A stretch of 51,054 nucleotides of DNA. Source: a virus. Where the stretch lies: positions 1 through 51,054 of IMG/VR virus record IMGVR_UViG_3300010352_001565, one strand, 5' to 3'. This document shows positions 324 through 47,484 of this stretch, piece by piece; the first letter of the stretch is position 1, and each line of letters opens with the position of its first letter. The notes beneath the pieces were generated by a model, which had not been told where the DNA came from, did no database searches, and saw only the letters and a list, made by a program, of their open reading frames with translations. Made by a program: the position numbers and the translations under genes.

Positions 324-360
324 GAGAGCCTGGGACTAGTTCCCAGGCTCTTTTTGTTTG
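324..360 (+). terminator. Rho-independent terminator
   Basis: GAGAGCCTGGGA-ctagt-TCCCAGGCTCT hairpin followed by TTTTTGTTTG. Confidence 0.75.
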
Positions 361-1388
361 CGGTTCTATCTAGAGTGCCAAACGTTCAACTAAAAGCACC
401 AGCAAAACCAGAAGAGACTCCGAAGAATGAGCACATCTTTCCGGCTACAAAGCTGACTGAGTACGCCATCAGATGGAAGGAGCTCAATAGCAAGGGCCGA
501 CACCGTGAGGCGTCTGAGCTCCTCGAGTACATCATCATCGAATCTACGGCGATGTTCGAACGGCTGGCTCAGTACGAAGACTTTCACCGCACTGTTGACC
601 TTCCAATTCTCGTCGCCGCGGCGCAAGAAAAGGTGGTCAAGTGGCTTCTGCGCTGGAAGCCAAAGAAAGGAAAGCTCTTCACCTGGTTCTCGAAGTGTGC
701 CAAGAACGCGTTCAGGTCTGAAGTGGTAAAGGTGTCTCAGTACCGCAAGCGCTTCCACGTCACTGGTGACAACCTTGAGAAGTTCTACGGGTTCGAGGAA
801 CATGAGGTTGACAAGCACGACGCGGCAAGGCAGGTGCGCAACCGCCTGTCAGAAATTACGTCGAGATGGGGCTCTCCTGAAGAGATCGGATCGCTGCACT
901 TCCTGACCGAATGCATCATCTCTGACACCCACGACAAGCAATCGGCCATAAAGGGCTGCGCTTACGCATACGGAATTCCTATCGATTTAGCCAAGTTTTT
1001 CTACACCTGGTCGCTTGTGTCTCTACGCGACGTCATGTACGATCAGGTCTATGTTCCTTTCACAGAGCAGGACTTGTTCCGCCACCGGTTCAGCTACACC
1101 CACCTCCCAGACCTTCTCAATATCCTAACGTGGGACCAACTGCGCCGACTCATTGTTACTCGCGGCGGGATGAGGTTCAAGATCCCCACGATTGCCCAGA
1201 TTGCCCAGCTCAAAGAAGACTACAATACCTTCCGGGAGGTAGAAGCCACGGATAAAGATCCTGACTCTATCGCCGCCGTCGCGAAGAATCGAAAGAGAAC
1301 TCCGCGCACAGCGCAGGAAGCTTATGAATCCATGGTCGAAACTTTGAATCCTGACCGCTCTGGAGAATTTCAGGTGTACGAGGATTGA
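354..1388 (+). CDS. gp55-like late sigma factor (sigma-70 region 2-like). The true start is uncertain.
   Basis: TEYAIRWKELNSKG and LFTWFSKCAKNAFRSEVVK resemble T4 gp55 (LQAIIDWKTELANNKD; ITQACFNAFVQRIKK) and the sigma-70 region 2.2-2.3 pattern. The gene sits directly after the terminator. The track start is TTG, and no ATG precedes the conserved region. Confidence 0.5.
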   Translation: MFAVLSRVPNVQLKAPAKPEETPKNEHIFPATKLTEYAIRWKELNSKGRHREASELLEYIIIESTAMFERLAQYEDFHRTVDLPILVAAAQEKVVKWLLRWKPKKGKLFTWFSKCAKNAFRSEVVKVSQYRKRFHVTGDNLEKFYGFEEHEVDKHDAARQVRNRLSEITSRWGSPEEIGSLHFLTECIISDTHDKQSAIKGCAYAYGIPIDLAKFFYTWSLVSLRDVMYDQVYVPFTEQDLFRHRFSYTHLPDLLNILTWDQLRRLIVTRGGMRFKIPTIAQIAQLKEDYNTFREVEATDKDPDSIAAVAKNRKRTPRTAQEAYESMVETLNPDRSGEFQVYED

Positions 1389-1405
1389 TGCGCCTGCCAT
1401 CACCG

Positions 1406-1465
1406 AAATAAATTTACACTTTTTTGCAAAAAAGTGTTTACTTTATATTCACGTACGGTTAGATT
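1406..1465 (+). promoter_or_regulatory. T4-early-type promoter region: AAATAAAT upstream element, a 22-bp perfect palindrome, a GTTTAC -35 at 1436-1441 and TAGATT at 1460-1465.
   Basis: It shares the AAATAAAT-(T)TTACA head with the promoters at 14281, 28492 and 35614. ACACTTTTTTGCAAAAAAGTGT at 1416-1437 is a perfect inverted repeat overlapping the -35. Confidence 0.45.
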
Positions 1466-1483
1466 GTCCATGTTGGTCAAACA

Positions 1484-1505
1484 AAATTTTCGTCAAATTT
1501 TCGTC
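1484..1505 (+). repeat. Tandem direct repeat AAATTTTCGTC x2 ending 4 nt before the ATG at 1510
   Basis: Exact 11-mer duplication read in the sequence. Its position suggests a translational or transcriptional operator. Confidence 0.6.
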
Positions 1506-1509
1506 CTAT

Positions 1510-3021
1510 ATGGCCCAAACTATTACGGAGTTGCTAACCCCGCGTCCAGGTAGCTCGCTCTTCCTCGTATTCAAGGACCCCCACCATCGTCCCCCAGTCT
1601 TAGATGAGATGATGGAAGACATCAATCACGTCATCACGTCTATCGCGACGAGATACACCGATACGAGCTGTCCTCAGCTCCACTTCGAAGACCTCGTCGC
1701 TGAGGGACGGTTCAAGCTCGCAGAGATCATCGACAAAGGCCATCTCAGCCGCCTTCCAAACCGCGTCGAATTCTTCAAATTTTTCAAGACAGCGGTGAAC
1801 AACCACATCAAGGGGTTGGTTCACCGACACAGGTTCACGGTAAAACGCACGGGTCACCGACCTCCTCCTAAAGAAGACCGCTTCAACTTTAATCCAGACA
1901 GCCATGCTGAGTCAGGAAAACCAGTAGAGATCAGCCTTGATGACCCTGATTCACACCTGCAGATAAGCGACAGCGACATCGAGAGCTTCTCTGGAGGCGG
2001 AGGAGTCGGAGATAGCGATCTTCTGGAAGAGATAGAGCAGATCCTTAGTCCGATCGAAAAGCTTGTCATGCGCCAAATGATTGAGCCCAACCCAGAAGCG
2101 CTGACATTTGCCATGGTTGAGTCGCACATGGGGAAGAAACCGAGTTCTGTTAAAATCAAAGTCAGGTATCAGCACATGGCTGATGGTCTCGGTATTGGAA
2201 TTGACCAGTTCACCAAGATCCAAGAGTCAATTAAAACAAAGGTTAGCGAGTTTATGCAACAATCTCAAGCGTCACCAGACGCCATCAAATACAACGTGGC
2301 AATTTCTCAGCTCTCTGAGCTGTTTGGCGTTCAGATTCCTCGCTCGATTGACAAGCTAGTGATTCGCCGACTGCTCACGATCGCCGCACGCGATCAGTTT
2401 GAGAAGGTGAACGCTGACGTTCGAGAGATGCTGGCGACTGTCGGAGCAAAAGCTCCCGATGCGAAAGGTAGCATCCTCTCGTGCTACGGAGTCCTCTACC
2501 AGCGCGGCCACAAAATATGCAGTACGTGCGGAATGCTTGAGTCGTGCAAGACTGAAGCGGCTAACGTGGGTCTCGGAGAGATCACGCTGTCGCCAAAGCT
2601 TCTTGGCACAAAGCAAACGCGAATCCCTATCCTGGTTGCGAGACAACAGCCCAAGCTCCAAGAAGAGCAGAGCAGCATTCCTGCTCCTGACATCTCGTCC
2701 ATCAAAGACGACGGCGCTCCCCTCTCCAGCGAGCGCGACGACGAAATCTTTAATTTCCTCTCAGAGAATTTTCGTCAGGTCAAATACGCGAACGAACCTT
2801 ATTTCAGGCACAAGGAGCTCCCTCCAAGCAAGAAGGTCAAATACATCTTTTGGTTCCATCGCGTCAGCGGAGAACCTATGCAGCTTCGATTCTGCAACCC
2901 TCCTGCCACCATTATCGGGCGCCTTGAAAAGCGCAAGAATGGGTATTATCTTCCAAGCGCCACTCCTGCAAAGGACGCCGCTGAACTGATCAACCTACAC
3001 GCAACTGCCACATTCAAATGA
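1510..3021 (+). CDS. Second gp55-like sigma-region-2 protein, with a ~300-aa C-terminal extension containing a Cys cluster (CYGVLYQRGHKICSTCGMLESC).
   Basis: DLVAEGRFKLAEIIDKGHLSRLPNRVEFFKFFKTAVNNHIKGLV matches the sigma-70 region 2 pattern DLIQEGNIGL..KFD..RG.RFSTYATWWIRQAI. It is paralogous to the 354..1388 product. Confidence 0.55.
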   Translation: MAQTITELLTPRPGSSLFLVFKDPHHRPPVLDEMMEDINHVITSIATRYTDTSCPQLHFEDLVAEGRFKLAEIIDKGHLSRLPNRVEFFKFFKTAVNNHIKGLVHRHRFTVKRTGHRPPPKEDRFNFNPDSHAESGKPVEISLDDPDSHLQISDSDIESFSGGGGVGDSDLLEEIEQILSPIEKLVMRQMIEPNPEALTFAMVESHMGKKPSSVKIKVRYQHMADGLGIGIDQFTKIQESIKTKVSEFMQQSQASPDAIKYNVAISQLSELFGVQIPRSIDKLVIRRLLTIAARDQFEKVNADVREMLATVGAKAPDAKGSILSCYGVLYQRGHKICSTCGMLESCKTEAANVGLGEITLSPKLLGTKQTRIPILVARQQPKLQEEQSSIPAPDISSIKDDGAPLSSERDDEIFNFLSENFRQVKYANEPYFRHKELPPSKKVKYIFWFHRVSGEPMQLRFCNPPATIIGRLEKRKNGYYLPSATPAKDAAELINLHATATFK

Positions 3022-3308: not shown

Positions 3309-3997
3309 AAGATCTCTTTTTAGAGCGCGTCGCAGTTAGCATAGCGGATGCCGCTCGCGAATACTCTGGACTGTCTGTATTTTCAGATCCTGACATGGCG
3401 CGTCGCTGCCAGGTTGCGATGGGAAACCGTCAAGACATCAGCGACGACGCCCTGTCAGATCTAAATCTCGCTTTCGCGCCAAGAACTCCTCAAATAGCGC
3501 GGCAAGGCAGGTTGCTTTCGTGCTTCTGGAAAACCTATCCGTTCGCGCTTTCAAACGCACTCAGCAGACTGCTTGTCAATCCTCCATCTGACATCAACCC
3601 TGGAGAAGGATTTTCAATGACTCTTAAGACCCAGTCGTGGGTTGAAGGAATTCATGGTGCGTGCATATTTAACAGAGAGCTCACACCAATAGAGGTAGTT
3701 TCAATACCAGGGGCGTTCTCGTCTTTTTTCGACGACGTTACTGTTTTTTGGGACTACGGATTTGGAGAGGATTGGTTCCTCGGAACTAGCGTGGTTGTGG
3801 ACCGAATTATGCCAGGGTCAACGGTGACTCTTGTTCGACCGAGCGCGCATCACAACACCTGGATCGGTTGGAGTGGAATCGACCTGTCGTTTAAAAGACT
3901 CCTAGCGAGCATCAACAGCAAGTACAAGCTTCGCGAGCTGTCCGTGAACACGGTCGGAAACATCGAAGTTGCCATACTTGGAGTTGAAGCAAAATGA
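3305..3997 (+). CDS. Hypothetical protein
   Basis: 230-aa ORF with a GTG start overlapping the upstream stop and an ATGA junction to the next gene. No recognisable motif. Confidence 0.4.
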   Translation: MKDLFLERVAVSIADAAREYSGLSVFSDPDMARRCQVAMGNRQDISDDALSDLNLAFAPRTPQIARQGRLLSCFWKTYPFALSNALSRLLVNPPSDINPGEGFSMTLKTQSWVEGIHGACIFNRELTPIEVVSIPGAFSSFFDDVTVFWDYGFGEDWFLGTSVVVDRIMPGSTVTLVRPSAHHNTWIGWSGIDLSFKRLLASINSKYKLRELSVNTVGNIEVAILGVEAK

Positions 3998-5727
3998 GAC
4001 TTGGAGATTCTGGAGAAAGTGTACGTCAGCTGCAACAGTGCCTTAACCTCATAGGTGAAAGGGTCCCAGTGTCGGGACACTACTGCCAGCGGACAAAAGC
4101 GGCAGTAATGAGGTTCCAGCAGGCGAACGGGCTTCAGCAGGACGGCATTGTTTCTCAGAAGATATGTGACATGATGGTTCGACAGGCAGACACTCATCGC
4201 CTGAACCCTCCTGTCCGCGTGGAGCCGACGCCTGAAAAGAGGGAAGAAATGGGACGAGGCGTCTGGTCTGAATTCTCCCTGGATGGCCTTCCTGGCCTCC
4301 AGATTGTCATTACGGCTCACAACGCTGGCCCCTGGATAACCGATTGCCTCCTGAGCGTAAAACGCGCCATGCGTCATTTAAAGAGCGGGTGGAAAGTCCT
4401 GGTGGCTGATGACTCCAGCACGGATCACACGTACGCTCTCGTTTCTGAGCTTAATGGCCAATTTCCATCCCTGACTATAAAACGCTTTCCAAAATCTCGC
4501 AGCGTTGGCGCGGCAAGAAACAAGGCCATCAGCATGGCCATGGGCGACTCGACCAGAGAGTTTCCTGCCATCTGCATGGTTGACGCTGACGACACGCTGT
4601 CTGAGGACCACGGCACTCTGCTTCGCGCGATGGTAGACTCTGGAAGCCTTGCGGTCTTTGGCGACTATTTCAAAGGAAACGAACTCGTCATCGCCGCTCC
4701 TGAAAATCAGGTCCGAGGGAACATCAAATGTGGCGCGGTAATGTTCCACCACAGCCTCATTCCAGGAAACGGAGCTCTGTTTCGCGAAGACTTAGAGATC
4801 AACGAAGAAGCTGCTTTGTGGATGTCGTGGTTTAAGCGCGAGATCAACATGAAGGCCTGTCCTGGAACAGTGGTCTACAACTATAACATTCACGATGGGT
4901 CGGCGTCGAACCCGCTGGATTTGCAGTTTAAAGAGGCTGCGCTTAAAAAGTGGGCCTCGATAAGAACGTCCATCATGGACGCAGGAACTTCAATTTGCGA
5001 GCCTCTCGTGTCTTGCTTGATGCTGACCGGAAAATGCCCAGAACGGTTGCCGTTGGCCCGCGTCGCCATTCGCTGCTTTCTCGATCAGACGTGGCACAAC
5101 AAGCAGCTGGTGATTATCAATCACGGGGACACCCCTCTATCAACAGGAGATCCACGCGTTGTCGAAGTGATGACGACAAAAGGACCTGATGTTTCTCTTG
5201 GCGATTTGAGAAACATGAGCATCGACGCCGCCAGCGGAGAATGGTGCGTGCAGTGGGATGACGACGACTGGCACCACCCTACGCGCATTGCCCAGCAGAT
5301 GAAGGAAGCCAGGCATGACGCTCTGGTGACCTATCTCTGGCAGATCAGGTTGAACCTGGTCACCGGCTCGGCGTTTTATGACAAGATGGAAGGAGGTCAG
5401 CACATGTCGGTGCTATTCCACAGGTCAGTGGCTCACCGCTATCTAAAGCTTGAACGAGCAGAGGACACCGCTTTTGTAAAGAGCTTTAGCAGAATTATCG
5501 CAATTGATAACTCCATTCTAAACCCGTTCACAGACCCACTTCAGTACGTCAGGACTTACCACGGAAGAAACATCTGGGATGCATCACACATTATGCGCGG
5601 AAGCGACCAGAAGAACGTTGACCACCCCGCTGAGATGAAGCTGACGGAGTACCACGCCGACAAGGTGCGTGGTATTATTGAAACCTACCAGATCCAGCCA
5701 GGTTACACGGCTGGAACGAATGTGTAG
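3994..5727 (+). CDS. Peptidoglycan-binding domain fused to two GT-A (family 2-like) glycosyltransferase domains
   Basis: N-terminal GDSGESVRQLQQCLNLIG...QDGIVSQKICDMM fits the PG_binding_1 pattern. VITAHNAGPWITDCLLS...VLVADDSSTDHT...GAARNKAI...DADD is a GT2 signature. A second GT-like unit follows (VSCLMLTGKCPERL...WDDDDWHHP). Confidence 0.7.
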   Translation: MRLGDSGESVRQLQQCLNLIGERVPVSGHYCQRTKAAVMRFQQANGLQQDGIVSQKICDMMVRQADTHRLNPPVRVEPTPEKREEMGRGVWSEFSLDGLPGLQIVITAHNAGPWITDCLLSVKRAMRHLKSGWKVLVADDSSTDHTYALVSELNGQFPSLTIKRFPKSRSVGAARNKAISMAMGDSTREFPAICMVDADDTLSEDHGTLLRAMVDSGSLAVFGDYFKGNELVIAAPENQVRGNIKCGAVMFHHSLIPGNGALFREDLEINEEAALWMSWFKREINMKACPGTVVYNYNIHDGSASNPLDLQFKEAALKKWASIRTSIMDAGTSICEPLVSCLMLTGKCPERLPLARVAIRCFLDQTWHNKQLVIINHGDTPLSTGDPRVVEVMTTKGPDVSLGDLRNMSIDAASGEWCVQWDDDDWHHPTRIAQQMKEARHDALVTYLWQIRLNLVTGSAFYDKMEGGQHMSVLFHRSVAHRYLKLERAEDTAFVKSFSRIIAIDNSILNPFTDPLQYVRTYHGRNIWDASHIMRGSDQKNVDHPAEMKLTEYHADKVRGIIETYQIQPGYTAGTNV

Positions 5728-6587
5728 CGGTTAAGCGCCGTCGTGCTGATTCCCTCACCATCTCTTCCACCCGCGACTAGAGGTGTCTCTAAGCTAAATT
5801 TACGGTAAGGATTAGTAGTCGCGTAGAGAGGACCTACTTGAGACATCACCATTGACGCAATGGCGTCGGCGCGGCCTCGTTCAGGTCCTTGGAGAGACGT
5901 TTCGACTTCTTGGTGCGCAAGAAATTTATGGTCGACATCGACACACAGCACGTCTGATCCTTCAAACTTCAGCAAACCTGCCATGCGAGCGCGGTGAGTG
6001 TAGTCGCAGTGCTCTTCTCCAAACTTACCGAAGCGGGTGTCAAAGTAGCCGATTCGGTCAACCAGGTCGCGCGTGATTGAGATGGCGATTCCGGTCATTC
6101 GAGAAAGTATCTTGACAGTGTACCCATTCGACCTCGCAGATCTCCATCGATATGAGTCAGACGTGAAGTCGCAAAAGCAAAACATTCCAATTCCAAGGTC
6201 AGCGTGTGCTTTTCGATAGAAATCCTCGAAAGGACCACGAACCTCGATGTCATCGTTTATTATCACGAGGTGATCCGCTCTAATATGGCGCATCCACGCA
6301 ATCGCTTTGTTGGACTGAGCTGCCACACCGAGGTTTCTCCTTCCCATGAAAACTGAAATGTTCGGAAGCCACCCTGTGTACTGATCACTTTCGATGGAGT
6401 CAGCAAATCCTGACTTGACCTTTGAACCGCGAGTCAGCAGCGACTCGGTCTCATCCATTCCACCGCAGTCCTCAAAGACGGCCACGGGTGTTTTTCCGCA
6501 GTGGTCTTTGAGGCCTTTTAGGCAGGTTGCGAGTGATTCGACGCGGTTATATGTTAAAACGGCGATGGCTGACTTTGCACTGGTCAT
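5703..6587 (-). CDS. Glycosyltransferase family 2-like
   Basis: IAVLTYNRVESLATCLKGL...VFEDCGG...VIINDDIEV is a GT-A N-terminal signature. Its 3' end overlaps the previous gene by 25 nt (convergent). Confidence 0.65.
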   Translation of the reverse strand: MTSAKSAIAVLTYNRVESLATCLKGLKDHCGKTPVAVFEDCGGMDETESLLTRGSKVKSGFADSIESDQYTGWLPNISVFMGRRNLGVAAQSNKAIAWMRHIRADHLVIINDDIEVRGPFEDFYRKAHADLGIGMFCFCDFTSDSYRWRSARSNGYTVKILSRMTGIAISITRDLVDRIGYFDTRFGKFGEEHCDYTHRARMAGLLKFEGSDVLCVDVDHKFLAHQEVETSLQGPERGRADAIASMVMSQVGPLYATTNPYRKFSLETPLVAGGRDGEGISTTALNRYTFVPAV

Positions 6588-7600: not shown

Positions 7601-7691
7601 CTCGCCATAACGGTAGAGATTGATCATCAACCCTCTGAGGCGTGAATGGGGAGTGCCCCTTAGCTGAACGTGGTAAACAAACAGTTATCGC

Positions 7692-14280: not shown

Positions 14281-14317
14281 AAATAAATGTTTACAAATTT
14301 CCGTTTCGTGATATAGT
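14281..14317 (+). promoter_or_regulatory. T4-early-type promoter: AAATAAAT upstream element, GTTTACA -35 (14289-14295), 16-nt spacer, TATAGT -10 (14312-14317), ATG 6 nt downstream
   Basis: Read directly. It is near-identical to the module at 28455-28492 (minus strand). A 7-bp inverted repeat GTAGAAC/GTTCTAC flanks it. Confidence 0.55.
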
Positions 14318-14323
14318 TCTACC

Positions 14324-14698
14324 ATGATTACGAACGAAACAGTTACCAGAGACAACATCGATAACGAAAGCTTCTACAACGTGGTTCAGCTTTGCAATAT
14401 CACTGGTTATGCTGATCCTGTGGCTGCTCTCAAATCCACTGGTGAGACTGTTCGCGTAACGCGAGACAACGGAGGAAACATTACTGGCGGCGAGCTGATC
14501 AGAAAGAGCGGCAACGAAAGCGCGAGAAACCTGTTCCGCTACATTCCTTCTCACAACGAATACTCCACGGTTGACGAAGCTGCCGCTGGAATGGAGAAAA
14601 CAGATACTGCTGTTGAGCAGCTTGTCAATGGAAAGTGGGTTCATTTTCGCACTCTTACCGCCCAGGACCACGCCGACGCCGCTTGGATGCAGGAATAA
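14324..14698 (+). CDS. Hypothetical early protein
   Basis: ORF starting 6 nt after the promoter -10. Confidence 0.45.
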   Translation: MITNETVTRDNIDNESFYNVVQLCNITGYADPVAALKSTGETVRVTRDNGGNITGGELIRKSGNESARNLFRYIPSHNEYSTVDEAAAGMEKTDTAVEQLVNGKWVHFRTLTAQDHADAAWMQE

Positions 14699-14704
14699 TC
14701 GCAT

Positions 14705-14983
14705 ATGGTTAACAAAAAGCGTTTACACTCTGCGCGTTCGCGCTATATTAGCGGTATGAATACTGTTCCTAAAATTGACTTATCCGAGCTTGAGGCTGCG
14801 GTAAGCGTCATGCAGGAAGGGACTTCAATCGAAGAGCCGATGACGAATTTCAGCCTCGAGGTGATCCACGAAGGTTTACTTCGCTTGACATCAAACGTCA
14901 CCAAGAGAGTGATTAACCTCCCGCTGACGGGGCGCTGCCCAATGTCAGTGATGGCGGGATTCGCAAAACGCCAAATGGCATAG
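14705..14983 (+). CDS. Hypothetical protein
   Basis: 92-aa ORF in an operon-like array. Confidence 0.4.
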   Translation: MVNKKRLHSARSRYISGMNTVPKIDLSELEAAVSVMQEGTSIEEPMTNFSLEVIHEGLLRLTSNVTKRVINLPLTGRCPMSVMAGFAKRQMA

Positions 14984-34626: not shown

Positions 34627-35013
34627 TCAATTGTCGTAAATCCTGGTCAGCAGTCCTCCCTCAACGGGAATCGACCGCCCAGCCGGAAGCGACTTCCGGG
34701 TGTATCCTGCAGTTCTCTGATAAATCTCGGCTTTCGCGCGGCCGCCTCGCTTCAGCTTTCCGAGCCTCACAGTAATCTCATTGAGGACGCAGCGGTCGAA
34801 GATCAGGTGGCTGAGCACCATTCCAACAAACCAGACTGCGGGCAAAATGCAAACCCACCGAAGTGGGCTATGCGTGGCAATGAGGAGTCCGCTGACAAAG
34901 GCTAATGGCCCGTAAATGAGAGCCCCTGTCTTGTTGAATCGGCGGTTTATTTGTATGATCCGCTGAACTCGATCAGGTTGCAGCTCGAACGCAATTTTTG
35001 CACGTCTAAATTT
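34627..35013 (-). CDS. C-terminal membrane / PH-like domain ORF with no start codon of its own. It is reachable only by a -1 frameshift from the 34947..35537 frame (slippery A_AAT_TTA at 35007-35013).
   Basis: The -1 frame is open across the stop of the upstream ORF and encodes TGALIYGPLAFVSGLLIATHSPLRWVCILPAVWFVGMVLSHLIF (two TMs) plus a basic C-terminal domain. There is no ATG or GTG after the upstream stop. Confidence 0.35.
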   Translation of the reverse strand, partial: KFRRAKIAFELQPDRVQRIIQINRRFNKTGALIYGPLAFVSGLLIATHSPLRWVCILPAVWFVGMVLSHLIFDRCVLNEITVRLGKLKRGGRAKAEIYQRTAGYTRKSLPAGRSIPVEGGLLTRIYDN

Positions 35014-35537
35014 GGAGCTCGCAAAACTGCGCCATCGGGATACAACACCATGGCACCATCGGGTGCAAACGTTACCTTGCTGGCTCCCTTGAGGGCCACC
35101 AGCGACGTTGTTGACGGTGACACTGGCAGGCTCGACCGCTGGCTGCTGCTGGGAGGCGCTGCCACCATCTCCAAAGGGGACGGTTCCGGTTTCTCCGCAC
35201 TGGGTTGAGACGGGGCTGTCGGGGACTGAATTTGCGCTTCCCGCAGCGGCGCCACTGGAGGCAACGTCGACACAGACGCAGACCCCGCTTGAGTCGGAGG
35301 GACTCCCATGACTTGGGCGAACTTGGCCGGAAGGGCCAGATTCAGGGATTGAAGGTGCTTCAAGAAAGTGGCTTCGGTACCAGAGCTTGACGCTGAGCAG
35401 AGGCCTTCTGAGGCCATGGTCTCGACGACGACTTTCTTCGAGGGACGGCTGGCAATCGCCAGTGCGGTCTCGACTTTGGTCAAGACGCCCTGAGCTTGCT
35501 CCGCCGACAGACAGGCAATTTTCGATTTTTTGATCAT
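34947..35537 (-). CDS. Early protein (196 aa) with a helical N-terminus and a Pro/Ser-rich linker. It is the zero-frame product of the candidate frameshift gene.
   Basis: ATG about 40 nt downstream of the promoter -10. The N-terminus MIKKSKIACLSAEQAQGVLTKVETALAIAS looks protein-like. Confidence 0.5.
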   Translation of the reverse strand: MIKKSKIACLSAEQAQGVLTKVETALAIASRPSKKVVVETMASEGLCSASSSGTEATFLKHLQSLNLALPAKFAQVMGVPPTQAGSASVSTLPPVAPLREAQIQSPTAPSQPSAEKPEPSPLEMVAAPPSSSQRSSLPVSPSTTSLVALKGASKVTFAPDGAMVLYPDGAVLRAPNLDVQKLRSSCNLIEFSGSYK

Positions 35538-35574
35538 ATGTTTGTTTAGCTGCGAACAGCATAAGTTTCATCAG

Positions 35575-35614
35575 CACTATAGCATGCGAATAAAACTTTG
35601 TAAACATTTATTTG
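35575..35614 (-). promoter_or_regulatory. T4-early-type promoter (minus): AAATAAATGTTTACA, 17-nt spacer, TATAGT
   Basis: Minus-strand reading AAATAAATGTTTACAAAGTTTTATTCGCATGCTATAGT. Confidence 0.5.
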
Positions 35615-38957: not shown

Positions 38958-39458
38958 TTATGGTTGGCCGTCAGACGGAGCCCGACCGCCAGTTGGATCT
39001 TGAGGGTCAAGCTCGTAAGCAAGCTTGTACCAGTACATTTCGCAGGTTGACGGACCCCATTCAGCAAACGGAGAAAGGCATCCGCTACGAGGATCTGGGT
39101 CTTCGATCATGGCGATGGCAATTCCGTCATTTTTGCCCTCTTCACCTTCTTCTTCAACCTCTGCGTTAGCGAATGCACCTTTGATGCTCTTGTCATCCGG
39201 AATGACGTAGATGGAGTGGCCTGTAAAGCCTTGAGATTCGACCTGTTCGATCGTTCCGTGGACGTCCTTGAATCCTGGAGTGAGCCCGTCAGCGTACTGA
39301 GTGAGGACTATCCGCTGACCTTCTTTAAGACCCTTGAATTGCTCAGGAGTCAGACCACCGTTGGCCATTACATCTTGAACATTGTCTGCTTTCGGTGGTT
39401 CGTTCTCGCCGAGAAGTTTCTCGACGAGCTGCTCAGCCTTCTTTTCGTTTTGTTTCAT
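38958..39458 (-). CDS. Acidic early protein; start reassigned to MKQNEKK
   Basis: The ATG lies 6 nt after the TATATT -10 of the promoter at 39465-39495. The first 7 residues of the track ORF fall inside the promoter. Confidence 0.5.
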   Translation of the reverse strand: MKQNEKKAEQLVEKLLGENEPPKADNVQDVMANGGLTPEQFKGLKEGQRIVLTQYADGLTPGFKDVHGTIEQVESQGFTGHSIYVIPDDKSIKGAFANAEVEEEGEEGKNDGIAIAMIEDPDPRSGCLSPFAEWGPSTCEMYWYKLAYELDPQDPTGGRAPSDGQP

Positions 39459-39464
39459 ACGAAT

Positions 39465-39495
39465 AATATAGCACAGATTCAAAAATCTGTAAACA
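39465..39495 (-). promoter_or_regulatory. T4-early-type promoter (minus): GTTTACA, 17-nt spacer, TATATT
   Basis: Minus-strand reading AAGTGTTTACAGATTTTTGAATCTGTGCTATATT. Confidence 0.5.
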
Positions 39496-41199: not shown

Positions 41200-41229
41200 G
41201 TTTACATTTCAGCGCTTGTGCTGTACATT
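41200..41229 (+). promoter_or_regulatory. T4-early-type promoter: GTTTACA, 17-nt spacer, TACATT, ATG 6 nt downstream
   Basis: ATTGTTTACATTTCAGCGCTTGTGCTGTACATT, then gacagt ATG. Confidence 0.5.
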
Positions 41230-41235
41230 GACAGT

Positions 41236-41637
41236 ATGAAGAACTCCTTGATGTTATCAGTCTTGCTAGCGCTGTTGTGCGGGTGCACCATTGCCCCTGT
41301 CAGGTACCCTCCTTCGTCATTTCAGCCCACATCCGAGGGAAAGACTAGCCCTCCTTTCATGCGCGGAGATCTCGTGGTCCTGAAGACTCAAGAGGTCAAT
41401 TACCCTGGAAGTGCGCGCGGCCAGGTGGTCTGTGGCTACTGGGATCCGATGTTTTGCACTTGGCGGTATCAGGTAAAATTTCCGAGAGGAGCGTGGGGAG
41501 ACTTCTACCCATACTTTGCGGGAATCCGTCAGTCGTACTACTACGAAAACTACTACGACTTCGACGTCTGGGTTTGTGGATACGAGCTTCTTCGCGTTGA
41601 CGAGCCGCGAGCGGTTACTTTTCCGTTGAGTAGGTAA
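41236..41637 (+). CDS. Putative lipoprotein expressed from an early-type promoter
   Basis: MKNSLMLSVLLALLCGC is signal-peptide-like with Cys at the cleavage region. Start moved from the track's GTG at 41218 to the ATG. Confidence 0.45.
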   Translation: MKNSLMLSVLLALLCGCTIAPVRYPPSSFQPTSEGKTSPPFMRGDLVVLKTQEVNYPGSARGQVVCGYWDPMFCTWRYQVKFPRGAWGDFYPYFAGIRQSYYYENYYDFDVWVCGYELLRVDEPRAVTFPLSR

Positions 41638-45909: not shown

Positions 45910-46445
45910 CAGTAAGACTTCCCGTCGATGCTGAGCGCGTTAACTTGACCCTTGTTGAGGATGAGCTCAGTTCCAGGCGCGAGGTCGTAATCAACCCAAG
46001 CACCTTTCTGAACGAGCTTGAAGCGCTGCATCTCATTGGTGTTGTCGATATTCCCAGGGATAATGATCGGAGAGTCCTTGCGGGAGGTAAATGGCTCCAC
46101 CAGCAACCAGCGCCCGAGCATCTCGAAGTTTTTCAGCGTGACCTTTGCGGACTTCAGCCTGGCCACCATGTCATTTTGGTGGAGCACAATGCCGCTGAAC
46201 GAAGGAGACTCATACGCAGCTTGCTGCAGCATGTAGTCGTTCGACTGAAAGAGCACGGTGTCTCCTGGAGAAAGCTGGGTGTCGCGGGCAGGGGCGCCGT
46301 CGACAGTCTTGCTTACGGAAACCACGGATCCAAGAAGGTGAGATTTGCGGCCTGTGCCAGGAGGAAGGACAATAAGACCCTCATGCTTTTCCTCGACGAC
46401 TTTTAAGGCAACGCGAGAACCGAAAACGAGAACGTTATTTTTCAT
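45864..46445 (-). CDS. Tandem GroES-like co-chaperonin (T4 gp31 functional analog)
   Basis: Two GroES-like halves: EEKHEGLIVLPPG..GSVVSVS..GDTVLF and SPIIIPGN..LAPGTELILNKGQ..A. Confidence 0.45.
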   Translation of the reverse strand: MKNNVLVFGSRVALKVVEEKHEGLIVLPPGTGRKSHLLGSVVSVSKTVDGAPARDTQLSPGDTVLFQSNDYMLQQAAYESPSFSGIVLHQNDMVARLKSAKVTLKNFEMLGRWLLVEPFTSRKDSPIIIPGNIDNTNEMQRFKLVQKGAWVDYDLAPGTELILNKGQVNALSIDGKSYCYISSEGVLGAVSGT

Positions 46446-47484
46446 TACCTTCTAAGAACTGATCGAGCTGGGTAGACAAGCTTTCGACAGGACACGACTT
46501 GCGTCTTACAAGAAAGCGGTCCCAAGCAAAGTCGACGTCGTCGTTAGGATCGAGTGTCCGGTTGTCTGCAGTTCGAGGAAGAGACGCCACAGTCGCGGTT
46601 CGCTGGTTGACCAGCCTCTCGGCTGACTTCCAAGATTCAGCGGTTGAGTCAGCGTCGAACATGAGGCAAAACTCTTTGACCCCTCGCAAGCTGAGCAGCT
46701 TTGAAATCTGAGGCTTGCTCATGTTGTGCTTGAACACCGCGACAGGGACCACGCTCTTTGCTCCGATCTTCTCTATCTTCTTTTCGAGCGACAGCACGTT
46801 GAATATTGCTTCAACGATTATGATGGTCTCTGGCTTAACCTCGCGCACCCTGTCAATGTTGTAGACCCAATACTTGGATCCTAGCGGGACCTCTCTGCGG
46901 CTAGGAAATTTCTTAGTTCCCTCACCCGGAGGAGGCTGTCCATACATGCGCCCTTGGTAATAGACCAGCTTCCCCCACTCCATCACAGGAAAGATGGTGT
47001 ATGGCTCCCAGTATGGGTCTTCCATGGTGTATCCCGCGCCAGCTTTTATAAAGTCGCTAATGTGGAGATTTTTGCGCTCTGCCATTTCAGCGACAAGGCG
47101 GTAGTAGGTTGACCGAGGATTGTCCTTAAGCAGCCTGAAGCCACGCGGTAGCTTCGCATTTGACATTAGAGGGGTTATTGTGCGCACTCCTATGCTGTCT
47201 GTTTCGTCGATCAGCTTCTCAACCTCTGAGATGTCTGGATCAACAATTCCGTCCTCAACCTCGTATCCAAGGCGCTGAACCCACTTAAAGAAGTTAGCGT
47301 GACCGACGTTGCAACGCCAGCAGTTCGTCCTTCCAGTCCTGAGGTTGACAGACCGGTTTCCCGACTTATCCGCGCATCCTGGCTGAGGGCAGATAAAGAC
47401 GAGTTCGTCCGTGGTGGAGCGATCCTTGTTGACCTCAAACAGCTCGTCCACTGTTCGCTTAATCTTTGACGCAAGCGCACTCAT
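46435..47484 (-). CDS. DNA primase, T4 gp61-like (zinc ribbon + TOPRIM)
   Basis: FICPQPGCADKSGNRSVN..CWRCNVGH parallels gp61 FRCPVCGDSKTD..HCYNCNYH. IIIVEAIFNVLSLE and CLMFDAD match the TOPRIM motifs. Confidence 0.8.
   Translation of the reverse strand: MSALASKIKRTVDELFEVNKDRSTTDELVFICPQPGCADKSGNRSVNLRTGRTNCWRCNVGHANFFKWVQRLGYEVEDGIVDPDISEVEKLIDETDSIGVRTITPLMSNAKLPRGFRLLKDNPRSTYYRLVAEMAERKNLHISDFIKAGAGYTMEDPYWEPYTIFPVMEWGKLVYYQGRMYGQPPPGEGTKKFPSRREVPLGSKYWVYNIDRVREVKPETIIIVEAIFNVLSLEKKIEKIGAKSVVPVAVFKHNMSKPQISKLLSLRGVKEFCLMFDADSTAESWKSAERLVNQRTATVASLPRTADNRTLDPNDDVDFAWDRFLVRRKSCPVESLSTQLDQFLEGNEK

Follow-up and report, generated by a model that had tools for sequence, protein, structure and literature searches.

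The first 3 kb of a 51,054-nt stretch of viral DNA (IMG/VR virus record IMGVR_UViG_3300010352_001565, positions 1 to 51,054; hereafter the window, meaning this whole stretch) contain two adjacent open reading frames (ORFs) on the same strand, ORF1 and ORF2, which we interpret as genes for two different sigma factors of the sigma-70 superfamily that sit side by side, as a conserved pair, in a clade of uncultured T4-like myophages. We give this explanation, taken as a whole, a probability of about 0.62. According to profile comparisons and structural models, ORF1 is most likely a counterpart of the T4 late sigma factor gp55 fused to a domain of the Mor/C type, the family of the phage Mu activators, whereas ORF2 is most likely a two-domain sigma factor (sigma-2 plus sigma-4) resembling the extracytoplasmic function (ECF) sigma factors and not specifically gp55. 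A previous sequence-only reading of the same DNA had described two adjacent gp55-like late-sigma paralogs, the second of them with a C-terminal extension of 300 residues containing a cluster of cysteines. The two genes and the signal that precedes them are as follows.

324..352, + strand: intrinsic terminator of the upstream gene, a 12-pair stem (7 of the pairs G-C) and then a T-run
375..1388, + strand: ORF1, putative gp55-like late sigma fused to a Mor/MuC-like domain
1510..3021, + strand: ORF2, putative two-domain sigma with a clade-specific extension of ~250 aa (503 aa in total)

Mechanical ORF calling placed the genes at 354..1388 (344 aa, TTG start) and 1510..3021 (503 aa, ATG start). Both were present where the sequence-only reading had located them, as was the cysteine peptide CYGVLYQRGHKICSTCGMLESC, which corresponds to ORF2 residues 325-346. 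Since each protein has more than 100 full-length homologues in metagenomes, ORF1 and ORF2 were confirmed as real genes. The terminator lies ~20 nt 5′ of the ORF1 start, and the gene that it serves stops at 291. Because TTG 354 falls inside the T-run of this terminator, because ORF1 homologues begin ~7 codons after it and because an identical ORF1 gene on a second contig was called at 337 aa, the likely start of ORF1 is GTG 375, which yields a protein of 337 aa; residue numbers nevertheless refer to the 344-aa frame throughout. For ORF2, ATG 1510 was kept as the start, since the sequence RPPVLDEMM that lies 5′ of the alternative start Met34 is conserved.

The ORF1 protein comprises three predicted domains.

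429..758, + strand: sigma region-2/gp55-like core of ORF1, residues ~26-135, with a last helix of 28 residues (108-135)
813..1049, + strand: middle four-helix domain of ORF1, residues ~154-232, a candidate sigma-3-like or helix-turn-helix-like domain
1059..1343, + strand: Mor/MuC-family domain of ORF1, residues ~236-330, with a GG-x4-IP linker and a helix-turn-helix

In the AlphaFold2 model of ORF1 (mean predicted local distance difference test score, pLDDT, 84.7), the core adopts a four-helix fold of the region-2 type with an elongated last helix, as in the gp55 family. This helix agrees with the long H4 described as specific to gp55 (PMC7892883), and T4 gp55 (PDB 7D7D) tied for top among the structural matches. 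Profile searches with 43 ORF1 relatives pointed in the same direction, since the gp55 family of the PHROG collection, phrog_234, was matched by 28 of them (best E 3.4e-4) and Pfam Sigma70_r2 by 13. A similarity of ORF1 to gp33 was considered and rejected, as none was found by hhalign with T4 gp33. When both families were aligned with T4 gp55, a set of 23 gp55 sequences, T4 gp33 and E. coli RpoE, the region-2 helix came into register, never significantly.

What the sequence-only reading had missed is that ORF1 itself exceeds gp55 in length by ~150 aa and has a domain of the Mor/MuC family at its C-terminal end. Members of the gp55 family measure ~170-190 aa, lack region 4 or any other DNA-binding domain and have gp33 as a separate partner; ORF1 shares with gp55 the T4-like genome context but adds a middle domain and a Mor/MuC-type helix-turn-helix domain. 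The comparison with Mu Mor and C relied on PDB 1RR7, PDB 9L0X, PMC12867686 and bioRxiv 10.1101/2025.05.02.651988. By both profile and fold, residues ~250-330 fitted the Mor family, whose hallmark, a GG-containing beta linker followed by a C-terminal helix-turn-helix, is kept in ORF1 together with the GG-x4-IP form of the linker. Almost all ORF1 relatives (42/43) matched phrog_836 (best E 2e-10) and 23/43 matched Pfam Mor (best E 6e-6), while Sigma70_r4 was not among the 25 Pfam families that these relatives matched most. Mor and C exist as separate proteins of ~130-140 aa and work as tetramers next to sigma-70, whereas ORF1 carries the domain as a fusion behind its sigma core and lacks most of Mor's N-terminal dimerisation region, the match beginning at position 48 of the 133 in the profile. 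The middle domain, with helices at 154-165, 175-189, 195-206 and 210-227 modelled at pLDDT 86-96, gave no profile match to any other domain tested.

ORF2 begins with two domains that we assign to the sigma-70 superfamily.

1600..1833, + strand: sigma-2 domain of ORF2, residues 31-108, followed by a conserved T-x-K-R-T-G (residues 110-115)
2005..2268, + strand: sigma-4 domain of ORF2, residues 166-253

Fold searches with the ORF2 model (mean pLDDT 81) showed that two separate high-confidence domains match the corresponding domains of sigma factors in the correct N-to-C order, and that full-length sigma factors align with ORF2 over 135-149 residues. No nuclease or glycosylase fold appeared among the top fold matches, and a search of BFVD returned two unnamed, uninformative matches (E 3e-4 and E 1.8e-3). 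Neither a fold match nor a profile match specific to gp55 was obtained, the likeness being to the generic sigma-2 fold, and a single one of 43 ORF2 relatives matched Pfam Sigma70_r2 (E 0.09), below the curated cutoffs.

The claim that the two proteins are gp55-like paralogs held insofar as both belong to the sigma-70 superfamily and possess related region-2 cores; it did not hold for recent duplication or for a specific gp55 likeness of ORF2. BLASTP between ORF1 and ORF2 found nothing significant and comparison of the full-length profiles reached a probability of only 8%, but hhalign restricted to the sigma-2 cores aligned them over 43 columns with a probability of 77% and an E value of 2e-5. 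No other pair of ORF1 and ORF2 domains aligned in domain-restricted hhalign. A second line of support for the kinship of the cores came from inteins. An ORF2-family protein of 899 aa (P0278; ...HLKS|C...VVHN|CVNNH...) and an ORF1-family gene product of 775 aa (L029:2417-4744; ...FLSK|C...VVHN|CAKNAF...) each contain an insert with LAGLIDADG and intein-splicing domains. The two inserts are 37% identical over 454 residues (E 1e-81), and in the hhalign register of the full-length profile comparison their insertion points within the sigma-2 helix coincide. Given the domain-restricted alignment and the presence of homologous inteins at an equivalent site, these comparisons indicate that the two cores are distantly homologous and have a critical site in common, while the proteins as wholes differ in architecture and are, by the same comparisons, not recent duplicates. 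The intein site would flag this helix position as essential, and an intein common to paralogous targets is unusual. To our knowledge, no intein has been reported in any sigma factor, and a search of the accessible literature, whose coverage is incomplete, found no such report.

We then placed the pair in its genomic context. Genes in the window specify a major capsid protein of the gp23 type, an S77 prohead protease, an ATPase resembling SbcC/gp46, a nuclease resembling SbcD/gp47, a primase, and tail sheath, tail tube and baseplate hub proteins, a gene content that identifies the source as a T4-like myophage. It is a remote one: no cultured phage has a capsid protein more than 30% identical to its own, and neither DNA searches nor tblastn with ORF1 and ORF2 found a match among GenBank phages. 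Relatives in metagenomes were 55-80% identical to ORF1 and 31-51% identical to ORF2; both families occur on contigs of up to ~260 kb, and their members go by the name 'hypothetical', the exceptions being two labelled 'sigma24' and one whose enzyme name is evidently spurious. The ORF1 profile retrieved 22 IMG/VR loci, and in 20 of them the next gene downstream of the ORF1 homologue is a same-strand homologue of ORF2. The same arrangement was found in three other, longer contigs, where the order is a RecA/UvsX-like gene, a metallopeptidase-like gene, a gene of ~245 aa, ORF1, ORF2, several further genes, the prohead protease and the capsid gene. The pairing is not universal, because the two most divergent ORF1 loci, L025 and L029 (42% identity), have no ORF2 homologue after ORF1 and carry an unrelated gene in its place, encoding 159 aa in L025 and 401 aa in L029. 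Among 185,579 species genomes there was one match, a 5.9-kb contig (L030, JBEKZM010000197.1) of a Verrucomicrobiota metagenome-assembled genome from a peat sample. A single contig of this size is too thin to name Verrucomicrobiota as the host, and we treat it as a weak hint or a binning artefact.

Beyond the length of a normal sigma factor, ORF2 continues for ~250 aa (residues 254-503). The extension of 300 residues described by the sequence-only reading is therefore not one piece, since residues 166-253 form the sigma-4 domain; its claim of a long extension with a cysteine cluster stood. The structural model divides the extension into a three-helix module, a cysteine module, a disordered linker (368-401) and a C-terminal alpha/beta domain.

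2275..2442, + strand: three-helix module of ORF2, residues 256-311, with the conserved stretch VRRLLTIAARDQ
2458..2568, + strand: four-cysteine module of ORF2, residues 317-353, C325-x11-C337-x2-C340-x5-C346, a predicted metal site
2722..3018, + strand: C-terminal alpha/beta domain of ORF2, residues 405-503, predicted YjbR/YdhG (frataxin-like) fold

The three-helix module matched no other domain tested. In the cysteine module, all four cysteines are invariant in the family alignment, and the pattern C-x10-12-C-x2-C-x5-C is kept in 179 of 180 full-length ORF2 relatives, 177 of which have x11. The module is small and mostly helical, and the mean pLDDT of successive 10-residue blocks across residues 321-360 was 79, 88, 91 and 75. 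The spacing C-x2-C-x5-C is typical of [4Fe-4S] sites such as those of NuoG/HydA, endonuclease III/MutY, AddB/Cas4 and WhiB, and WhiB-like proteins act on sigma region 4. ORF2 resembles the sites of NuoG/[FeFe]-hydrogenase, endonuclease III/MutY and WhiB in having an x2/x5 cysteine triplet with a distant fourth ligand, but that ligand is a cysteine at -11 rather than a histidine at -3/-4 or a cysteine at -6, and ORF2 has no significant sequence or fold match to the known modules. Indeed, the sole PDB profile match of the extension, to residues 88-122 of the alpha subunit of an Fe-hydrogenase, which have the C-x2-C-x5-C spacing, was not significant (E 4.1), and no iron-sulphur family was among the Pfam families that ORF2 relatives match most. 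From the spacing, we consider it most likely that the module binds a metal cluster, with [4Fe-4S] slightly favoured over zinc.

The C-terminal domain of ORF2 has the alpha/beta sandwich fold of the YjbR/YdhG (DUF1801) superfamily (PDB 2FKI, 9T2W), with neither a Pfam nor a sequence match to YjbR/YdhG. The B. subtilis protein YdhG (Fra) is a frataxin homologue that binds iron (PMC4934914); the likeness of ORF2 to it is one of fold only, and in ORF2 the YjbR-like domain is fused to a sigma factor. Some relatives (P0075, P0230 and P0062) have a tandem second copy of this domain, which argues that it is an autonomous module. When a profile of the extension alone was run against 1.84 billion cluster representatives, the 154 proteins recovered were all members or fragments of the ORF2 family, and no cellular source of the extension was found among these representatives. 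As far as such profiles reach, the extension is specific to this clade.

The sequence-only reading had also suggested that an anti-sigma-like domain might be fused in cis. No anti-sigma fold was found, nor a ZAS motif (H-x3-C-x2-C), and this part of the proposal gained no support. A regulatory role of the extension in cis is still a reasonable idea by analogy. Among ECF sigma factors, groups with regulatory C-terminal extensions are known, some of them rich in cysteine (ECF41/42; cysteine-rich ECF238/CorE2, ECF287 and ECF288), and in ECFs of this kind the extension replaces the anti-sigma factor as regulator (PMC7826278). ORF2 is like them in carrying a conserved extension with conserved cysteines after sigma-4. 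It differs in that its extension spans ~250 aa in three modules, whereas ECF238 has a cysteine-rich tail of ~20 aa directly after sigma-4; unlike a tail of the ECF238/CorE2 type, the four cysteines of ORF2 lie 70-90 residues past sigma-4. Neither the ORF2 cysteine pattern nor a YjbR-like domain is among the extension types mentioned in the searched passages of PMC7826278. Further differences from the extended ECFs are that ORF2 is encoded by a phage, that its extension occurs in the ORF2 family only and that its score falls below the ECF model cutoff.

Both ends of ORF1 carry short conserved motifs.

429..443, + strand: N-terminal motif E-H-I-F-P of ORF1, residues 26-30, after a disordered tail
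1350..1385, + strand: C-terminal tail motif P-x-R-x-G-E-[YHF]-x-[IVL]-[YF] of ORF1 with acidic residues, residues 333-344

In the N-terminal motif F29 is invariant and E26, H27, I28 and P30 are each at least 90% conserved, the divergent relatives L025 and L029 having the variant Q-H-I-F; residues 1-16 were modelled at pLDDT below 50. In the tail, which forms a coil after the last helix of the AlphaFold2 model, G337 and E338 are invariant and R335 is present in 42 of 43 sequences. Phage Mu C binds the beta sliding clamp through an N-terminal (QHDLF) and a C-terminal (QPDLF) motif, this binding is needed for Mu late transcription, and clamp motifs at both ends are general in the Mor/C family, with Qx[DE][LM]F as the N-terminal and QPDLF as the C-terminal consensus (PMC12867686, 2026). 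Transcription by proteins of the Mor/MuC kind depends on the clamp (PMC12867686). A further contact of MuC is sigma region 4, and the beta flap tip helix is probably another (bioRxiv 10.1101/2025.05.02.651988). In a MAFFT alignment the N-terminal motif of ORF1 lay opposite the EDLF of Mor and the HDLF of MuC, and the tail aligned position for position with the C-terminal QPDLF of MuC (PMC12867686). The clamp-binding motif of gp55 is situated in a C-terminal tail of the same kind, disordered and acidic, and the ORF1 motif there is hydrophobic/aromatic, although its GE[YHF]x[IVL][YF] differs from the SLDFLY of T4. By analogy, ORF1 is possibly tethered to the sliding clamp through its terminal motifs; because these fit neither published consensus, we propose clamp binding as a hypothesis only. 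An internal EQDLF (238-242) is unlikely to be a clamp motif, as it is modelled as helix and its final Phe occurs in only 20 of 43 sequences, and the tail motif of ORF1 was not found at the ends of other proteins of the window. As a separate observation, the product of the primase-like gene at 46435-47484 (- strand) ends in ...STQLDQFLEGNEK, which is closer to the clamp-binding tail SLDFLYEAND of T4 gp55 than is the tail of ORF1 itself.

Possible promoters were sought in the window, and the following signals were noted.

1417..1438, no strand: perfect 22-nt palindrome ACACTTTTTTGCAAAAAAGTGT in the ORF1-ORF2 spacer, abutting the -35 element of the putative ORF2 promoter
1435..1465, + strand: sigma-70-like promoter TGTTTACT-N17-TAGATT, 44 nt 5′ of the ORF2 start and just past the palindrome
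1435, 14288, 28484(-), 35606(-), 39495(-), 41199 and 49286, - strand where marked: sites of the TGTTTACW class

The motif TGTTTACW occurs 7 times in the window where 1.41 occurrences are expected, and none of 100 shuffles reached 7. The class has the consensus TGTTTACA-N16/17-TATAGT or close variants, often preceded by AAATAAA. As a member of this repeated class lies 44 nt upstream of it, ORF2 probably has a host-type promoter of its own in this window, whereas ORF1 stands directly behind the terminator with no room for a promoter. The palindrome ACACTTTTTTGCAAAAAAGTGT is a possible operator; the spacer that contains it is absent in relatives. At five sites of the class the ATG start codon is just 4-6 nt past the -10 element, which implies leaderless early transcripts. 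Some gene calls near these sites may be improved, in that the starts of the ORFs at 34627..35607, 38958..39482 and 41218..41637 are better moved to the ATG just 3′ of the promoter, and within 14291-14704 the more probable gene is the ORF 14324..14698 on the + strand. GATAAC and GTTCTATC, which recur by eye, were rejected as late-promoter motifs since they are not enriched. A palindrome of the form TTGAT-nn(n)-TCAA was seen by eye before the prohead protease gene in three genomes only (window 7601-7691, L003 ~14640-14758 and L005 ~14680-14788) and makes this region a candidate late-gene control region; L003 and L005 also have GTTTCC-n-GG(G)TG-n-TTA-n-AAG ~15-35 nt before the start codon of the protease.

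Three other explanations of the pair were weighed against this evidence. If ORF1 were an ordinary sigma factor with sigma-2, sigma-3 and sigma-4, its last domain would be a divergent region 4 and there would be no link to gp55, Mu or the clamp. This is difficult to reconcile with the phrog_836 (42/43, best E 2e-10) and Pfam Mor (23/43, best E 6e-6) matches, which are specific and recurrent, with the conserved GG-x4-IP hallmark of Mor, with the lack of Sigma70_r4 among the 25 most-matched Pfam families and with the fact that the C-terminal domain of ORF1 does not align with the sigma-4 of ORF2; in addition, more relatives match the gp55 PHROG than Sigma70_r2 (28 vs 13). We regard it as unlikely. 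The sequence-only reading would have the pair as late sigmas of the gp55 type that arose by duplication and serve two classes of late promoters, the second sigma with an anti-sigma-like domain in cis. The sigma-2 cores present in both proteins and aligned at E 2e-5, the intein family that occupies the same site in both families and the existence of ECF sigmas with regulatory, in part cysteine-rich extensions (PMC7826278) all speak for it, but the differing architectures, the generic sigma-2 likeness of ORF2 and the missing anti-sigma fold make it quite unlikely.

A further possibility is that ORF2 is not a sigma factor but a DNA-binding regulator or a DNA-metabolism protein, with helix-turn-helix-like domains and an iron-sulphur module of the repair or nuclease type. 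The C-x2-C-x5-C spacing is indeed found also in the clusters of endonuclease III/MutY and AddB/Cas4, proteins of the YjbR family are annotated as DNA-binding and the sequence support for a sigma factor is below curated cutoffs. Against this, ORF2 has two sigma domains in the correct order, aligns with full-length sigma factors over 135-149 residues, gives no nuclease or glycosylase fold among its top matches, adjoins the gp55-like gene in 20 of 22 loci and bears an intein that marks the sigma-2 helix as functionally critical. We consider it very unlikely.

The explanation that we prefer, two different sigma factors in a conserved pair, also has evidence weighing against it. The comparison with gp55 and Sigma70_r2 profiles, which the sequence-only reading had proposed as a check, agreed with it for many ORF1 relatives but was weak for the proteins of the window themselves: ORF1 reached only E 0.18 with phrog_234, Pfam matched neither protein, and ORF2 scored E 0.007 and 16 bits with TIGR02937, whose cutoff is 42.9; nothing above cutoff was found with NCBIfam in either. 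In hhalign, ORF1 came into register with an alignment of 23 gp55 sequences of the Tevenvirinae type at a non-significant E of 0.019-0.1, and sequence and profile searches of the PDB with both proteins and their family alignments gave chance-level matches only. Both AlphaFold2 models have a predicted template modelling score (pTM) of 0.39 and do not fix the arrangement of the domains. The end motifs of ORF1 fit neither the bacterial clamp-binding consensus QL[SD]LF nor the (S/T)LDFL of T4, as they also lie outside the Mor/C consensus Qx[DE][LM]F / QPDLF, and PHROG searches with 30 ORFs of the window brought up no sliding clamp gene. Metal binding by ORF2 is read from cysteine spacing alone. The window contains no copy of the T4 late promoter TATAAATA, nor did any other motif emerge there as a late promoter. 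Finally, the two genes overlap or nearly abut in relatives, so that a separate early promoter for ORF2 is not conserved; because of this we do not claim a fixed cascade from ORF2 to ORF1.

We propose the following mechanism for two different sigma factors acting in one phage. The domain assignments, the conservation and the synteny are results of the comparisons above, whereas polymerase binding, promoter classes, clamp binding and metal binding are inferred. ORF1 would be the late sigma factor of the lineage, its gp55-type core engaging the beta-prime clamp helices of the polymerase and a late element of the -10 type. Its Mor/C-type domain would do the job of sigma region 4 or of T4 gp33 by contacting upstream DNA, the beta flap or both, and its end motifs would hold it on the sliding clamp, thereby linking late transcription to replication. 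ORF2, probably made early, would turn the polymerase of the host towards phage promoters of a -35/-10 class. Its extension may be a built-in regulatory or sensor module in which a metal cluster gates sigma activity or adds a DNA contact, a control analogous to that of ECF sigmas with C-terminal extensions (PMC7826278), except that a metal site would mediate it. That a phage with more than one sigma may reprogram the host polymerase in stages is familiar from the sigma cascade of Bacillus phage SPO1, where gp28 is followed by gp33/gp34. The SPO1 factors have no sequence relationship to ORF1 and ORF2, and ORF1 and ORF2 look co-transcribed in most relatives.

T4 late transcription, with gp55, gp33 and the sliding clamp, is the textbook coupling of gene expression to replication. 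A 2026 study has found that Mu C, although unrelated to the T4 factors, is also clamp-dependent, and asks how such dissimilar proteins converge (PMC12867686). A gp55-type core and a Mor/C-type domain in one protein, in a widespread uncultured lineage of T4-like phages, would provide a testable bridge between T4 and Mu, and possibly an 'unsplit' late sigma. If the assignment is correct, the two systems, whose players were recently called 'nothing alike', would be connected evolutionarily or mechanistically, and a Mor-type domain would be able to replace sigma region 4 or gp33. ORF2, for its part, would bring sigma factors with built-in regulators to phages, and an iron-sulphur cluster in it would make phage transcription sensitive to the iron or redox state of the host. 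The boldest version, in which ORF1 is a single-chain hybrid of gp55 core and Mor/C with clamp peptides at both ends and, at the same time, ORF2 is the first sigma factor with an iron-sulphur cluster and a frataxin-like domain, strikes us as doubtful. In the searchable literature, the coverage of which is incomplete, we found no report of a gp55-Mor/C fusion or of a sigma factor with an extension of the ORF2 type.

Some features of the neighbourhood were also noted. The gene upstream of the terminator (1-291, + strand), cut by the edge of the window, ends in a low-complexity region rich in Ala, Pro and Glu and, after it, a helical tail that looks conserved; it is the equivalent of the ~245-aa gene found ahead of ORF1 in the examined related contigs. 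Downstream of the pair, 3994-5727 (+ strand) encodes a protein of 577 aa with a peptidoglycan-binding domain and two family-2 glycosyltransferase stretches, and an ORF at 5703-6587 (- strand) lies opposite this gene. In related contigs, genes for family-2 and family-9 glycosyltransferases are located upstream of the sigma pair.

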